Source of the DNA: a virus
IMG/VR virus record: IMGVR_UViG_3300006052_000009
Span: 8,895-72,894 of that record
DNA: 64,000 nucleotides
Direction: 5' to 3' (one strand)
Within the stretch, counting starts at the first letter, position 1; every line of letters starts with the position of its first letter. Positions 3,983-9,061 of the stretch are shown here, piece after piece. The notes under the pieces were generated by a model. That model saw nothing but the letters and a program-made list of their open reading frames with translations, was not told the origin of the DNA and did no database searches. The translations under genes were made by a program, and so were the position numbers.

Positions 3983-4060
3983 GATCACCACAGATTAATA
4001 GGATTTTTGAAGTATACTGTATAAGATATACATAAAAATTCCTATTAAACTGTTGTGATC
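3983..4060. repeat. Imperfect inverted repeat with ~33-bp arms
   Basis: GATCACCACAGATTAATAGGATTTTTGAAGTATA pairs with TATACATAAAAATTCCTATTAAACTGTTGTGATC. Confidence 0.85.
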
Positions 4061-4106
4061 GTTTTTGTAATACAAAATCCTTTGAAAAATGACCGAAAAA
4101 TCACCA

Positions 4107-4162: not shown

Positions 4163-4455
4163 GCACCAAAATCCCAGAAATCAGCGTGTAACAGTAGTTT
4201 TAACACCCAAAATCACCCCCAAATTTGCTTTTGACAAAAATCACCCCTATTTTCACATAAAATGACACCAAAATTCCGCACGCTTACGTCAATGCACCTC
4301 CCGCACCAATGTCCCCCCGCGAGTCCCGAATTGGGCTTTTGGTTTTCTGAGGGGTGGGGAGTCGATTTTCCCAAAAAGAGAATCCAAAACATAATGCTTT
4401 TATCTGATTGTCAGCCGGTTACAAACTATTTAACATAATACAAATTATATAACAC

Positions 4456-5022
4456 ATGGAAACTGATGGGTTGAATGGCCAAAAGCCTGTTTCTGATGGG
4501 GTTTCACGTGAAACGCGAGCGAGCGCGAATGATGGAGGCACATGGTTATTTAGAAACAGTCTAAATAGGAGGGATATACGACTCAACAGGATTGACGAGA
4601 GGATAATACACATCAAGACAAAGAGGAGGCTTTGTACTTACTTTGGATCTCTTGGATATGAGACAAAGTTTTATTTGACTGATCGAGTATTGAACACGTT
4701 GGGAATATTTGAATTATGGTGTGTGATGAATAATAAAATTGCTGGTAGTATCAAGAACATTGTTCATTGGTCGGGTTACTCTTCATCGTGGGTGAGGGAC
4801 TACACATGGGGAATGAATAAGTGTGTTGAGTTAGGATATTTGGAGAGGATAAAGTTCAAGAGGGGTTATGTAATTGGATTGACTGAGAAGGGACAGAGAA
4901 TAATTGAGATGTACGATAAGATGTGGGATGTAGTGATCAAGGAGATTGAGGGTAGGGGAAATGTATTGATCGAGAAGAGGGGAAATAAGGCAGTTTCATT
5001 CGAGCGCAAATCTGCAGCGTAA
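4456..5022 (+). CDS. Winged-helix DNA-binding protein (true start uncertain)
   Basis: C-terminal MNKCVELGYLERIKFKRGYVIGLTEKGQRII is a MarR-like wing. The 5' part overlaps the parS-like and operator palindromes. Confidence 0.6.
   Translation: METDGLNGQKPVSDGVSRETRASANDGGTWLFRNSLNRRDIRLNRIDERIIHIKTKRRLCTYFGSLGYETKFYLTDRVLNTLGIFELWCVMNNKIAGSIKNIVHWSGYSSSWVRDYTWGMNKCVELGYLERIKFKRGYVIGLTEKGQRIIEMYDKMWDVVIKEIEGRGNVLIEKRGNKAVSFERKSAA
4501..4514. promoter_or_regulatory. parS-like palindrome GTTTCACGTGAAAC
   Basis: Perfect 14-bp core of the chromosomal parS consensus TGTTTCACGTGAAACA. Confidence 0.65.
4546..4568. promoter_or_regulatory. 23-bp palindromic operator, copy 2
   Basis: TTATTTAGAAACAGTCTAAATAG. 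Confidence 0.55.
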
Positions 5023-5034
5023 AAAAAATCCAGG

Positions 5035-5057
5035 GTAATTAGAATGGTTCTAAATAA
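5035..5057. promoter_or_regulatory. 23-bp palindromic operator, copy 3
   Basis: GTAATTAGAATGGTTCTAAATAA, upstream of the early operon. Confidence 0.55.
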
Positions 5058-5197
5058 TACGTGTTGGTTCTCAATGCGTTGAGTTGCATGTAATATTGAT
5101 GTAAGGTTATTTCTACAAGATATTTTGTAGTTCAAAGAATTTTGTAGACATTTGATGTGTCAAGTGAGGGATAAAACACTTCTAAACGATCAAGAAT

Positions 5198-5534
5198 ATG
5201 AACACACATTTCGACATTAATGAGCATGGGTGCAGAGACTTCCCGAAAGAGTCTCAATTAGAATTGGTACGTGCGATGGCACGTTCACAGATAGTATGGT
5301 CATGGGGTGCGCATGCATGGGCAAACGTATATGACAAGGGATTGAGGTTTTAGAGTCAATGGTCACCATCACAAAGGTCTTGTGTACATTGTTGTGAATG
5401 GTAGCGACTTGTTCGATGTGTATCTGACTGACAACAAAGGTAAGATCAAGGAGAGTCTGATTGATGTGTATGTTGAAGACTTGATTAACACGATCGATCA
5501 GAGAGTTGAATACATTGATGCATACAAATTTTAA
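5198..5534 (+). pseudogene. Hypothetical protein split by a 1-nt frameshift at AGG TTT TAG (~111 aa if joined)
   Basis: Frame 1 reads MNTHFD...VWSWGAHAW...KGLRF*. The +1 frame continues RVNGHHHKGLVYIVVNGSDLFDVYL...DVYVEDLINTIDQRVEYIDAYKF* with no start of its own. Confidence 0.7.
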
Positions 5535-5553
5535 TCTTAAACAATAAACGATC

Positions 5554-5706
5554 ATGAAAACGATTAGCACAACTGACGAGTTAGTTGCCATGAAGGCGAG
5601 ACTCACACATTTCGAAGATGCGTATCAGGCATTAAATTCTGCTTGGATAAATGCGGAGTATGAATTTAATGATGGCATTCTTAATACTAATAATCCTACA
5701 GACTGA
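5554..5706 (+). CDS. Hypothetical protein (50 aa)
   Basis: Manual translation MKTISTTDELVAMKARL.... AAACGATC leader. Confidence 0.55.
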   Translation: MKTISTTDELVAMKARLTHFEDAYQALNSAWINAEYEFNDGILNTNNPTD

Positions 5707-5858
5707 AGACGGATTAAAGACGAGTGTTCGAATAGAGGAGCATCAATTTAAAGAAATACTGAACACATTTAAGAGGTGAATTACCATCCTGTGGGTGATT
5801 GGTTTTGCCCACAGGAGCAATGCGAATATTCGCAGATATTAAAAACAATAAACGATCT

Positions 5859-6563
5859 ATGGAAACTTATGTAGCGACAAGGGAGCAATTGATGGGAGTA
5901 TCATTGCCCGAACAAACGAAGACTTACAAACCTGTAAGCCATGCACAATTGATTGACTTGACATTGGAGTCTATTGACAAGTCAGGATTTAAGTTAGCGA
6001 GTGAGGAGTATTCAGCATCACAGAATGGTCAGATTGCCAACGGCAAATTTGCGATTGCAAACTTGTTTGACACAGAGATGCAATTACAGATCGGATGGCA
6101 GAATAGTTACAACAAAAAACTGACCTTGAAGTTTGCCATTGGTTCGCGCATCTTCATCTGCTCGAATGGATGTGTACGTGGTGACTTTGGTAGTTTTAAA
6201 AGAAAGCATGTGGGTGATGTGCAGGAATTCACACCAGAGGCGATCACGGAATACATCAAGAGGAGTTCGGATGTGTTCACCTTGATGCAATCAGAGAGGG
6301 ATGCCATGAAGTCTGTGGGACTGACGGCTCGCGATCGTTCTACCTTGGTGGGTAGGATGTTCTTGGAGGAGGAATTGATCACAGCGACACAGCTAGGCAT
6401 CATTGCACGGGAGATCAAGGCACCGACACACGATTATAATGCCGAGGACAGTCTATGGGAGTTGTACAACTACACCACGTTTGCCTATAAGGAGATTAAC
6501 CCAGCATTGTGGATGAGTCAGCATATGAGTGCGCATGAGTTTTTTGTGTCACTCACCAAGTAG
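5859..6563 (+). CDS. DUF932/DUF945-family protein
   Basis: TKTYKPVSH...NSYNKKLTLKFAIGSRIFICSNG...SLWELYNYTT motifs. ATG 5859 follows an A-rich leader. Confidence 0.8.
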   Translation: METYVATREQLMGVSLPEQTKTYKPVSHAQLIDLTLESIDKSGFKLASEEYSASQNGQIANGKFAIANLFDTEMQLQIGWQNSYNKKLTLKFAIGSRIFICSNGCVRGDFGSFKRKHVGDVQEFTPEAITEYIKRSSDVFTLMQSERDAMKSVGLTARDRSTLVGRMFLEEELITATQLGIIAREIKAPTHDYNAEDSLWELYNYTTFAYKEINPALWMSQHMSAHEFFVSLTK

Positions 6564-6601
6564 AATGGTTCGTTGGGGAGGTTCGACTCCTCCCCTACTT
6601 G
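6557..6601 (+). ncRNA. tRNA-like minihelix (acceptor-like stem plus T-arm)
   Basis: GGGGAGG-TTCGACT-CCTCCCC hairpin (6575-6595) enclosed by CAAGTAG/CTACTTG. No D-arm or anticodon arm. Confidence 0.5.
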
Positions 6602-6621
6602 CAAACTAATTTTTAACGATC

Positions 6622-6801
6622 ATGTACACACAACTAACCATTGAACAGGCCTTGGCTGAGCTGATCAGCCTCCACGGAGTATTGATTAAGATTAAGGACG
6701 CGCCAGGCATTGAGCCGGTGCTCAAGACATTGGATTCTGCCTACAAGGCATTGGACGACATGGCTCAGGATTATGCAAACTATTTGGAGGAAAGGAGGTA
6801 A
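6622..6801 (+). CDS. Hypothetical helical protein (59 aa)
   Basis: Manual translation MYTQLTIEQALAELISLHG...YLEERR*. Confidence 0.65.
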   Translation: MYTQLTIEQALAELISLHGVLIKIKDAPGIEPVLKTLDSAYKALDDMAQDYANYLEERR

Positions 6802-6805
6802 CGCC

Positions 6806-7465
6806 ATGAATACAAAAACGATTAACGGAATCAAATACATCGTTTACGAGGCTGGTATGGTCTTAAGCGATGAAACAAAATCATACTATTTCGAAAATGA
6901 TTTGGATTATGATGGGGATTTGAAATGCTTGTATTTGTATGCAATCAAAAGCGTAACGGTCCGAGGCAATCAGGATGTCCGAGGCAATCAGTATGTCGGA
7001 GGCAATCAGTATGTCGGAGGCAATCAGGATGTCCGAGGCAATCAGTATGTCGGAGGCAATCAGTATGTCGGAGGCAATCAGGATGTCCGAGGCAATCAGT
7101 ATGTCGGAGGCAATCAGTATGTCGGAGGCAATCAGTATGTCGGAGGCTATCAGTATGTCGGAGGCAATCAGGATGTCCGAGGCTATCAGTATGTCGGAGG
7201 CAATCAGGATGTCCGAGGCCATCAGGATGTGAGGTACCTCATTGTTTACTGTTTTTGCAAATATCCTATTAGATTAGATAGAGATTCCGATGAAATAAAA
7301 ATTGGATGTGTCTCTAAAACTACGGATGGATGGAATGACTTTTTCGATAATAAGCAAACTATTTCTATGAGTGCAGAGGATAGAAACTATAAGAAACTGG
7401 CCGCTGCTTTGAATGCTGCCATTGCGATGAGGGATGTTTTAAAAGTTATGAACGATAAGCCATGA
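6806..7465 (+). CDS. Hexapeptide-repeat (beta-helix-like) protein
   Basis: 15 x V(R/G)G(N/Y/H)Q(D/Y) followed by an IKIGC...W domain. Start moved to ATG 6806. Confidence 0.8.
   Translation: MNTKTINGIKYIVYEAGMVLSDETKSYYFENDLDYDGDLKCLYLYAIKSVTVRGNQDVRGNQYVGGNQYVGGNQDVRGNQYVGGNQYVGGNQDVRGNQYVGGNQYVGGNQYVGGYQYVGGNQDVRGYQYVGGNQDVRGHQDVRYLIVYCFCKYPIRLDRDSDEIKIGCVSKTTDGWNDFFDNKQTISMSAEDRNYKKLAAALNAAIAMRDVLKVMNDKP
6959..7228 (+). repeat. 15 x 18-bp tandem repeat
   Basis: Unit GTC(C/G)GAGGC(A/T/C)ATCAG(G/T)AT. Confidence 0.95.
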
Positions 7466-7575
7466 TCGTCATCTATTGGAACGGTCATCGCTGGGAGTTT
7501 AACGATCAAGAGGGATATGCATTCCTTGAGTATTGGAAGTTAAAGGGTGATGGCGCAAATGTATTTAAGAAATGA
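7462..7575 (+). CDS. Small hypothetical protein (37 aa)
   Basis: MIVIYWNGHRWEF.... ATGA-coupled on both sides. Confidence 0.55.
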   Translation: MIVIYWNGHRWEFNDQEGYAFLEYWKLKGDGANVFKK

Positions 7576-7757
7576 GGAAAACCAAAAAACCTGAATGGAT
7601 CAAGAAAGCAATTCGCAATCAAAATGCGAGGAAGAGATACTTTATGAAACGATATGGTAATCTTGATCGCATGGAAGTGATTGAGGCAAAATTTCAACAC
7701 ATGATGGATGAATGGTCATTCAATGATGAACTTAAAAAAATGGAAGATATTAAATGA
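7572..7757 (+). CDS. Hypothetical basic protein
   Basis: ORF track. Confidence 0.6.
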   Translation: MRKTKKPEWIKKAIRNQNARKRYFMKRYGNLDRMEVIEAKFQHMMDEWSFNDELKKMEDIK

Positions 7758-7759
7758 CT

Positions 7760-7824
7760 AGGTGGTAGCCTTCGGGCGCACGTTCATGTTTTACTTGATC
7801 GTTTTCATGGACGGCCACCTTTTT
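7760..7824 (+). ncRNA. Three-way-junction RNA element/terminator with a loop antisense to early-gene leaders
   Basis: Outer stem AGGTGGT/GCCACCT, a GCC-TTCG-GGC tetraloop, a CGTTCATG/CATGGACG stem with a 17-nt loop, and a 3' T-run. Confidence 0.6.
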
Positions 7825-7839
7825 AACTGCAAACTAATT

Positions 7840-8145
7840 ATGGAAAAGAAAAAACTTTTAGGCGATTGGACAAGAAAAGAATTTGAGGCTCTCCCATGTA
7901 GAGCATGGGATGAGGAGATTGAATTCACTTCTATGGTTATACTACCAACAAGACGCATTCATGATTCGGGCTACAGATGCATGGATTTTGTTGCGTGCAA
8001 AAATCAGGTTCCTTTCGTTCGTCTTTCAGGGTGCTCTGATGTAATCCACGTTGATGGCATCGGTGGTTATGGTAAGGACTGGCTAAACTCACATCGGATG
8101 ACATGCGGTAGTGCGCTATCTTCATTTGAATTATACAGTTTATGA
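7840..8145 (+). CDS. Hypothetical protein
   Basis: ATG 7840 follows an AAACTAATT leader. Contains HDSGYRCMDFV and GCSDVI motifs. Confidence 0.65.
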   Translation: MEKKKLLGDWTRKEFEALPCRAWDEEIEFTSMVILPTRRIHDSGYRCMDFVACKNQVPFVRLSGCSDVIHVDGIGGYGKDWLNSHRMTCGSALSSFELYSL

Positions 8146-8233
8146 AACCGCTACCTGCATCTTTACTGACTATCTTCATCGGCTATATATTGGCCTTTGT
8201 GATCTTTGTTTTACTAGTTAAATTGATATCGCT

Positions 8234-8407
8234 ATGAAAACACATTTGAAGACGATAGGGGTAATGATGTTGATATTCACATATTGGATATTAATCTGGT
8301 GGGCAATGGCTGAGTTTAAATGGCTGGCATGGGCAGTAATATGGATTTTAGGTGGAGGATTACTTGTTTGTTTATATGTCATTATTTACAAATCTCTGAA
8401 GCCATGA
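8234..8407 (+). CDS. Small two-TM membrane protein
   Basis: MKTHLKTIGVMMLIFTYWILIWWAMAEFKWLAWAVIWILGGGLLVCLYVII... Confidence 0.55.
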   Translation: MKTHLKTIGVMMLIFTYWILIWWAMAEFKWLAWAVIWILGGGLLVCLYVIIYKSLKP

Positions 8408-8601
8408 AAATAAGAATCGAAGTACAATGTGAACTTTGCAAAGGCAATGGTTATGTTGATAGAACATTATGTCCTTACTGTGATGGTAAGGGATGGATTA
8501 AAATGCCAATGATATTAAGTCAAAAAAGATATGTTCCTGATGATGAGACTTATTTGGTTGTTGAGTTTTTAATTGATAATAAACAAGAAGTAGAACTATG
8601 A
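8404..8601 (+). CDS. DnaJ-type zinc-finger mini-protein
   Basis: Two CxxCxGxG motifs: CELCKGNG and CPYCDGKG. Confidence 0.7.
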   Translation: MKIRIEVQCELCKGNGYVDRTLCPYCDGKGWIKMPMILSQKRYVPDDETYLVVEFLIDNKQEVEL

Positions 8602-8756
8602 CCTACGATGTTCGCGAATATAACTCAGGGCGACTAGTCCGCACGGTAAGGTGGAATTTGCCCATTGGCATGGCTCGCTTTTATAAGCGATTACTGGAGA
8701 ACTCTCCGCACATGGATGGCAGTAAGTTTGAGATTGAACTAAACAAGAAGGTATGA
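8598..8756 (+). CDS. Hypothetical protein (52 aa)
   Basis: MTYDVREYNSGRLVRTVRW.... ATGA-coupled at both ends. Confidence 0.55.
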   Translation: MTYDVREYNSGRLVRTVRWNLPIGMARFYKRLLENSPHMDGSKFEIELNKKV

Positions 8757-9061
8757 GAATAAATCTGGCTGAACTTCTAAAACAAAATGGGGTAGCATTA
8801 ACCCGAGGGAGCAAACTATTTTTACTTTTCCTATTGTCTGGCTGCATCACAAGCAACAATCGATTCTACAACACGATTACTGACTGCAAACTAATTGTGC
8901 TCGACAAGAGGTACGTACCTGGCTTTCAGTCTCCAGATAAATATCTGCTGAAAGTGTACGAAAGTGGTGAGTATCGGTGGCTAAGTTCATCGGTGTCACA
9001 GTACAAAGTTCTTGCCATTGGTGATACGCTGAAGACAACACTAATACAGAAGGTGCAATGA
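8753..9061 (+). CDS. Putative lipoprotein
   Basis: Hydrophobic LFLLFLL followed by the lipobox LSGC. Confidence 0.6.
   Translation: MRINLAELLKQNGVALTRGSKLFLLFLLSGCITSNNRFYNTITDCKLIVLDKRYVPGFQSPDKYLLKVYESGEYRWLSSSVSQYKVLAIGDTLKTTLIQKVQ

Follow-up and report, generated by a model that had tools for sequence, protein, structure and literature searches.

Bacteriophage T4 RegA is a protein that represses the translation of many early messages by way of a short sequence at the start codon. At the level of RNA, the kissing contacts between 3′ and 5′ regions of plant RNA viruses provide a model for a 3′ end that is tied to initiation regions, and the enterobacterial CpxQ/SroC type exemplifies base-pairing sRNAs that derive from 3′ UTRs. 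The phage RNA c4 is encoded ahead of its targets and is released from the transcript by processing. To our knowledge, almost nothing is known about the timing of gene expression in phages of Bacteroidota, whose hosts lack both SD-based initiation and Hfq/ProQ.

Further described systems also come close to the locus reported here. In the immI operon of phages P1 and P7, the loops of the c4 antisense RNA are described as complementary to the RBS region and as blocking translation, and sequence differences between the P1 and P7 versions as giving heteroimmunity specificity (PMC12197685, PMC8198154). The start-associated sequences (SAS) of Cluster K mycobacteriophages occur in one orientation at the starts of unrelated gene families, apart from a single inverted copy that four phages carry (PMC3203893), and in the accounts cited here their function is still open (PMC3203893, PMC12699233). 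Bacteroides thetaiotaomicron has 3′-UTR-derived and intra-operonic sRNAs, among which GibS is described as pairing across start codons without Hfq or ProQ (PMC7366714).

Our locus resembles c4 in that its loop is complementary to initiation regions within the same operon, and loop and leaders differ between lineages in a compensatory way (14 of 14 leaders match their own class best). It differs in that c4 recognises essentially a single target region through two loops, whereas here one loop in a downstream terminator hairpin faces four to six separate starts. These starts belong to unrelated genes, and the likely host does not initiate by SD pairing; moreover, the element has no match to the Rfam C4 family. 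The likeness to SAS is a short asymmetric motif, rare elsewhere and in one orientation, that several non-structural genes from unrelated families have a few nucleotides from their ATG. Unlike SAS, which is described with the consensus GGGATAGGAGCCC, an SD core, a length of 13 bp and 11–19 copies, the motif here (wAAACGAyyA) is SD-free and unrelated in sequence, and judged by sequence the start tags are an analogue of SAS, not a member. Neither a hairpin-loop antisense copy nor co-variation of loop and leaders is reported in the SAS accounts cited above, whereas both are present here. As with 3′-UTR-derived and intra-operonic sRNAs, a putative RNA from the element would share the intrinsic terminator of the mRNA, and its loop is complementary to initiation regions. 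The seeds of such sRNAs are usually single-stranded 5′ parts and their targets are host genes elsewhere, whereas here the terminator's own loop carries the complement and the targets are a tagged gene class in the same operon. RegA is similar as one phage factor for many early starts, and different in that our candidate is an RNA loop with Watson-Crick specificity. The literature searched yielded no earlier account of phages in which a terminator loop serves as anti-leader to tags on several genes.

The hairpin element and the start-codon tags

We identified a terminator-type structured element at positions 7760–7824 on the plus strand of the window, by which we mean the whole 64,000-nt stretch of DNA analysed. 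The window is part of an IMG/VR virus record of 72,894 bases (genome G000). The element has a predicted folding energy of −23.8 kcal/mol (z −3.69), which was equalled by 0 of 200 shuffles, and the fold bore out the three-way junction with a UUCG hairpin and 3′ U-run that had been described in an earlier note on this DNA. An outer stem of 7 bp (AGGUGGU/GCCACCU, 7760–7766 with 7814–7820) encloses the mini-hairpin GCC-UUCG-GGC (7768–7777) and an inner stem of 8 bp (7781–7788 with 7806–7813), and a U5 run lies 3′ of the outer stem (7820–7824). The inner stem carries an apical loop of 17 nt at 7789–7805 with the anti-leader sequence TTTTACTTGATCGTTTT (UUUUACUUGAUCGUUUU when written as RNA), the core of which, ACTTnnTCGT, is kept in all five records that have this architecture. 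The minus strand of the same region folds poorly (z −1.7).

The element is flanked by an ORF of 61 codons (7572–7757), with its stop 3 nt upstream, and by the ATG at 7840. It thus has the layout of an intrinsic (Rho-independent) terminator, in which a stable stem is followed by U5 downstream of a stop codon and on the transcribed strand. A simple terminator scanner did not call it, because the loop limit of the scanner is 8 nt. No tRNA, tmRNA or known RNA family was found in the window by ARAGORN or by Rfam at the gathering score, and an Rfam search of 7700–7900 at E values up to 10 returned chance-level matches only. The contigs from three freshwater DNA runs were identical to the window wherever they overlapped it, so no micro-variation was obtained.

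All of the loop complements that the earlier note had listed are present in the sequence at the positions it gave. The shared target motif at the starts is wAAACGATCA, to which the loop is perfectly complementary over 8–12 nt, and it is placed 0–6 nt before the ATGs of four consecutive genes (5198, 5554, 5859 and 6622). The longest loop complement, with 11 nt, is the leader tag AAACGATCAAG at 5184–5194, 3 nt before ATG 5198; the gene itself begins with ATGAAC (5198–5203). Two tags flank ATG 5554 within 5546–5564, namely AAACGATCA (5546–5554) and AAAACGAT (5557–5564, codons K-T-I). A 12-nt complement that spans this ATG (CATGAAAACGAT, 5553–5564) includes a CATG portion whose match lies in the 3′ stem, not in the loop. 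The tag AAACGATC (5850–5857) is located 1 nt before ATG 5859 of the DUF932 gene, and AACGATCA (6615–6622) overlaps ATG 6622. All of these tags are on the plus strand.

Besides these leader copies, an extra AAAACGAT(T) is found just after the ATGs of 5554 and 6806. In gene 6806 it forms a weaker tag (6815–6822, plus strand) within the coding region, 9 nt after the ATG. Five successive tagged starts had been proposed; four of them stand, and the fifth is this weaker copy. The core variants at 5559 and 6817 read GATT for GATC, and since both are C-to-U they would still pair as G-U. One 10-nt loop complement (7501–7510) lies inside a small ORF (7462–7575) and not at a start.

The hexamer AACGAT is common when taken by itself: the window has 28 plus-strand copies, 22 of which are away from the tagged starts. 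The heptamer AACGATC is over-represented in the window (18 copies against 8.0 expected, with 0 of 100 shuffles reaching 18). The related string ACGATCA is at a genuine start in 3 of its 17 plus-strand copies in the window, and the other 14 are not at starts. We also ranked all 8-mers with G+C of at least 3 on the plus strand of the 72.9-kb genome by the number of complementary start regions. The best 8-mer of the loop was among the top 37 of 54,297 positions, with a complement in at least three start regions, and the corresponding ranks across the four genomes were 37/54,297, 3/48,554, 32/54,467 and 10/50,376 (6e-5 to 7e-4).

When 42 window starts were ranked with correction for accessibility, the four tagged leaders took ranks 1–4 (−12.7 to −7.0 kcal/mol), with the leader of 5198 as the top predicted site (−12.7 kcal/mol), and the start of gene 6806 was at rank 7. 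A plain loop-only scan of duplex energies over both strands, genome-wide, did not place the leaders on top. The best leader was about 12th of the merged matches in G000, about 14th in the relative G002 and 2nd–3rd in G003, and none from G001 was among the 14 matches listed; G+C-richer chance sites in coding DNA score similarly and explain this result. Most loop-leader pairings are short and A/U-rich. RNAcofold of the element with a leader gave values of about 0 for most pairs, a method that is unable to model pairing by an intact hairpin loop.

Related phages and co-variation of loop and leaders

Terminase searches and one DNA pattern identified four related records from three further lineages. 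The terminase of the window phage is 62% identical to that of G001 (loci L037 and L038), 52% to that of G002 (L080, which is complete with direct terminal repeats) and 46% to that of G003 (L054). The fourth record is a metagenome contig (L045), in which the 103-aa protein beside the hairpin is 95% identical to its counterpart in L054. Each relative has one hairpin with a 13–17-nt loop and a T-run, followed by the junction motif GCAAACTAA and an ATG, on the same strand as the small non-structural genes. The fold z values of the four hairpins are −5.18, −4.01, −3.99 and −2.55. This shared layout (L080, L054, L045 and L038) supports the operon-terminal position that had been suggested for the element.

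The loops of all five records retain ACUUnnUCGU, and the stems are unrelated in sequence among lineages. The stem is CGUUCAUG/CAUGGACG in the window, CCAGACCGG/CCGGUCUGG in L080 and CCGGGGGAG/CUCUCCCGG in L038, and in both L054 and L045 it is two-tier and ends in CAAGGU/ACCUUG. MAFFT was unable to align such unrelated stems, and loop-leader pairs were tabulated by script. The relatives have a plain or two-tier hairpin and only the window has the UUCG arm, so the three-way junction is peculiar to the window phage.

Two variable positions in the loop match the leaders of the same genome. We distinguished three classes, which correspond to two compensatory events and are drawn from four independent genomes plus one close relative. 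The window has leaders ACGATCAA and the loop TTGATCGT; L038, L054 and L045 have leaders ACGACCAA (3 and 4–5 copies) and the loop TTGGTCGT; and L080 has leaders ACGACTAA (6 copies) and the loop TTAGTCGT. For every one of the 14 leaders, the longest contiguous Watson-Crick complement is with a loop of its own class (8–13 nt, compared with 4–8 nt for loops of the other classes). Compensatory co-variation in related phages was a test set beforehand, and it was positive. The co-variation strongly supports a real functional link between the loop and the leaders.

The motif is concentrated at the early starts. Counts of the exact 9-mer AAACGAxyA inside versus outside the early region are 2 versus 2 in G000, 3 versus 0 in G001, 5 versus 0 in G002 and 4 versus 0 in G003. 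With a real start defined as the first ATG of an ORF of at least 50 aa, 3/17, 3/4, 3/8 and 5/6 of the plus-strand motif copies in the four genomes are at real starts, as against 0/19 on the minus strand. The leader copies are on the coding strand, at positions −14 to +13 relative to an ATG, and the distance between tag and ATG is 0 in 5 of the 14 leaders (GATCATG, GACCATG, GACTATG). Double tags, on both sides of the ATG, also occur in non-homologous genes of G003 and G002. The 14 tagged proteins had no cross-phage blastp match at E≤1e-3; thus, the tag follows the position or class of a gene and not the gene itself. Three non-homologous genes from three lineages begin with ATG-AAA-ACG-Ayy, and the tag is therefore embedded again as codons.

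More distant relatives did not extend the comparison. Blastn between early regions across the element showed no similarity except for G001 versus G003, and blastn of 5000–9000 against phage GenBank gave no match. There was no similar element or tag in the relatives found via the protein encoded at 7840–8145 (23 loci), or in those found via the DUF932 gene (11 of 12 loci examined; L034, 381 nt, was omitted). Relatives found through neighbouring genes are too distant to help. The exact element strings had 0 matches in viral and metagenome contigs, and a terminase alignment search of genome contigs yielded no relative. The pattern CTTTTWAAN{1,3}GCAAACTAA matched 55 loci, of which the real ones were L080 and loci of known records only; L064 and L107 have a hairpin before the junction motif and were rejected, as the loop has no match. 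The pattern TTTACTTNNTCGTN{15,45}GCAAACTAA matched 8 viral loci (including the known L080 and L086) and 17 genome loci without a new member, the remaining loci being without hairpin context and without motif clusters. Among 122 other loci (1.01 Mb), a combined regex and folding scan picked out 6 weak hairpin matches, none with the arrangement. In the distant terminase relatives L039–L044 and L048, a crude search for further 7-mers associated with starts detected no analogous system.

The SD core is missing at 40 of the 42 window starts inspected, and the leaders are 73% A+T. Terminase matches at about 25% identity came from 85 phage records, assigned to Flavobacterium (68), Cellulophaga (15), Maribacter (1) and an unnamed Caudoviricetes (1), and the window DNA occurs in freshwater metagenomes. 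The terminase relatives and the SD-less starts point to a likely Bacteroidota host, probably of Flavobacteriia type. In Bacteroidia, the structure of the mRNA close to the start, and not SD pairing, is described as what tunes initiation (PMC6847099, PMC7797042). Bacteroides sRNAs are also described as pairing at start codons without Hfq, which makes pairing of this kind plausible here (PMC7366714).

A putative RNA switch and competing readings

We consider it reasonably probable that the loop of the operon's 3′-terminal hairpin pairs with the SD-less initiation regions and represses them, either in trans or in cis. In our view the element probably acts as an RNA switch, hitherto undescribed, on the translation of early genes. 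An intrinsic-terminator-type hairpin would close the block of small non-structural genes, which we call early from their position only, and its apical loop would act as an anti-leader. This loop is predicted to pair over 8–12 bp (−7 to −13 kcal/mol) with wAAACGATCA at the ATGs of four to five same-strand genes that lie upstream. Pairing would most likely block 30S loading, because initiation there needs an unpaired A-rich start region, and would lower the translation of the whole tagged gene class. By the trans route, a terminator-protected 3′ fragment would accumulate; by the cis route, the 3′ end would fold back on the same mRNA. The mechanism presumes that the RNA is transcribed and stable, that the pairing takes place in vivo and that it represses at a particular time in infection, and the sign of the effect is purely our supposition.

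Four features argue that the signal is presented as RNA and read at the initiation region. The antisense copy in the loop is kept through complete replacement of the stem, the element is placed between a stop codon, which it follows closely, and a U-run, the tags are strand-specific at distances of 0–14 from ATGs, and loop and leaders have changed in concert. A tag-to-ATG distance of 0 fits a signal at the level of translation and not a promoter, and on this geometry (5 of the 14 leaders) we rejected a promoter reading of the leader tag.

Co-variation of all copies would be equally expected if the tag were recognised as DNA by a sequence-specific protein of the phage or the host, since the specificity of the protein and its sites would co-evolve. 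The tag could then be a repressor site, a roadblock or a short promoter element for a phage-directed polymerase, with the loop copy as one more inverted site. A further inverted copy of the core, GTGATCGTTTTTG at 4051–4066, lies in a divergent intergenic region and is unstructured (z +0.9), and the 188-aa gene that opens the operon (4456–5022) looks winged-helix-like from its sequence, with no match in Pfam. DNA-binding proteins are also the explanation that the authors preferred in the analogous case of the ESAS repeats of Cluster K mycobacteriophages (PMC3203893). We nevertheless regard a DNA signal as rather unlikely, as it fails to explain why the single inverted copy is in the apical loop of a hairpin-plus-U-run in 5 of 5 records with unrelated stems. 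The other copies are confined to the coding strand from −14 to +13 of the ATG, often at a distance of 0, at which a transcription start would not fit; the motif is asymmetric, with a length of only 9–12 nt, and the extra copy at 4051–4066 has no counterpart in G001–G003. Less probable by far is an ordinary intrinsic terminator whose complementarity is a by-product of recombination joints or linkers in a mosaic early region, the loop copy being an inverted remnant. The tag and GCAAACTAATT do flank non-homologous genes, as recombination linkers would, and AACGAT itself is common in the genome. A remnant, however, would have lost its match to the leaders over two independent compensatory changes and would not have stayed in the loop while the stems were replaced, and the per-genome rank of the loop 8-mer (6e-5 to 7e-4) also speaks against it.

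The loop and the leaders may pair with an outcome other than repression. Such pairing could hold the 3′ end of the operon mRNA at its initiation regions, like the kissing contacts of plant RNA viruses, and lead to stabilisation of the mRNA, help with ribosome loading or guidance of a processing nuclease. The structure and co-variation data apply equally to such pairing, and the element is in cis, on the same strand and 1–2.6 kb downstream of its sites. One loop faces four to six sites per transcript, which counts against stoichiometric repression, and one loop per transcript suits a cis contact better than stoichiometric repression in trans. The same number also weighs on the other side, as a single loop in cis is unable to contact four to six leaders at once. 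A duplex over or next to the ATG of an SD-less mRNA would be expected to hinder 30S binding, as follows from what is described for initiation in Bacteroidia (PMC6847099), and specificity classes are more typical of trans antisense systems such as the c4 of P1/P7, going by the account of that RNA (PMC12197685). We therefore think a non-repressive outcome unlikely.

If repression through the terminator loop is true, an RNA within the operon's own terminator would control translation at multiple targets across a whole gene class. The system is compact and defined by sequence, with a start tag of 9–12 nt, one complementary terminator loop and the natural compensatory variants GATC, GACC and GACT, and swapping these variants in loop and leaders is a direct and cheap experiment that is now possible. 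It also offers a concrete hypothesis for start-associated sequences, the function of which has been open since 2011. We can further imagine, as a speculation that we hold to be doubtful, that anti-leader hairpins are a general address code of phages infecting SD-less Bacteroidota, in which the start-codon tag sets the gene class and one terminator-loop RNA switches that class. The tag/loop pair would diversify in the manner of immunity or incompatibility specificity, so that a resident or co-infecting phage would silence only relatives with the same code. If there is such a code, it would provide a testable mechanism for the single inverted SAS copy in mycobacteriophages. As a practical use, tag/loop pairs that are orthogonal could be turned into programmable switches of translation for Bacteroidota.

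Gene junctions and other features of the early region

The gene-junction motif TGCAAACTAATT is on the plus strand at 7828–7839, directly before ATG 7840, with other copies at 6600–6611 and 8885–8896. In the form (T)GCAAACTAATT(T), the motif has these 3 copies in the window and 5–9 in each relative (L038, L045, L054 and L080), always on the coding strand, and its copies range over 1790–5751 in L038 and 8235–12868 in L054. It also follows the hairpins of the relatives directly, often encodes Ala-Asn-stop of the upstream gene, and is 0–20 nt before the next ATG; no antisense copy of GCAAACTAATT was found. The −7 box of Bacteroidetes is a promoter element. Reading GCAAACTAATT as such a box was unsupported, and at 7840 the ATG overlaps the would-be box.

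Other leaders in the window carry other short sequences. AACTAA is found at most 25 nt upstream of 9 of the 42 starts, and many late or structural genes (leaders of 9265, 16278, 29090, 29842, 33720 and others) have a different tag, AAACTAAC(C)AA, in front of them, which suggests that leader tags may be class-specific. The only strong SD-like sequence among the 42 leaders is GGAGGAAAGGAGG (6785–6805), before gene 6806, which is unexpected where the genome is SD-less. A non-coding block at 4388–4457, upstream of the first operon gene (ATG 4456), is conserved in G001 and G003 (74–80% over 70–84 nt). It contains repeated ACATAAT and TTAACATAATA..AATTATATAACA and is a candidate early promoter or operator. 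The copy of the anti-leader core at 4051–4066 is on the same strand as the loop copy.

The ORF at 5198–5353 ends in TTT-TAG (5348–5353), and the +1 frame is open to 5534. Reading TTTT as one step in 5198–5534 gives a product of 111 aa, and two phage records match its residues 32–110 and 32–104 in a continuous frame across the junction. The run contigs (three DNA runs) have the same letters at 5348–5353. The site resembles a prfB-type stop-codon site for programmed +1 frameshifting; alternatively, a frameshift mutation may have become fixed there. This gene is also the one that carries the longest loop complement.

There are two further hairpins in the window. The one at 6557–6603 (GGGGAGG-UUCGAC-UCCUCCCC) has a T-arm-like loop and no U-run, and ARAGORN calls no tRNA there. 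It is preceded by TAGAATGGTT, a second copy of which is at 5040–5049, and it is possibly a processing signal. The other is a strong hairpin at 5787–5834 between genes 5554 and 5859, with 12 bp (CAUCCUGUGGGUGA...) and the palindrome GCGAATATTCGC (z −4.18).

Gene 6806–7465 contains 12 copies of an 18-nt tandem repeat (GGCAATCAG...) at 6950–7225, which encode hexapeptide repeats. The gene has a weak Pfam match to an ice-binding-like adhesin, and the contig depth rises at the repeats.
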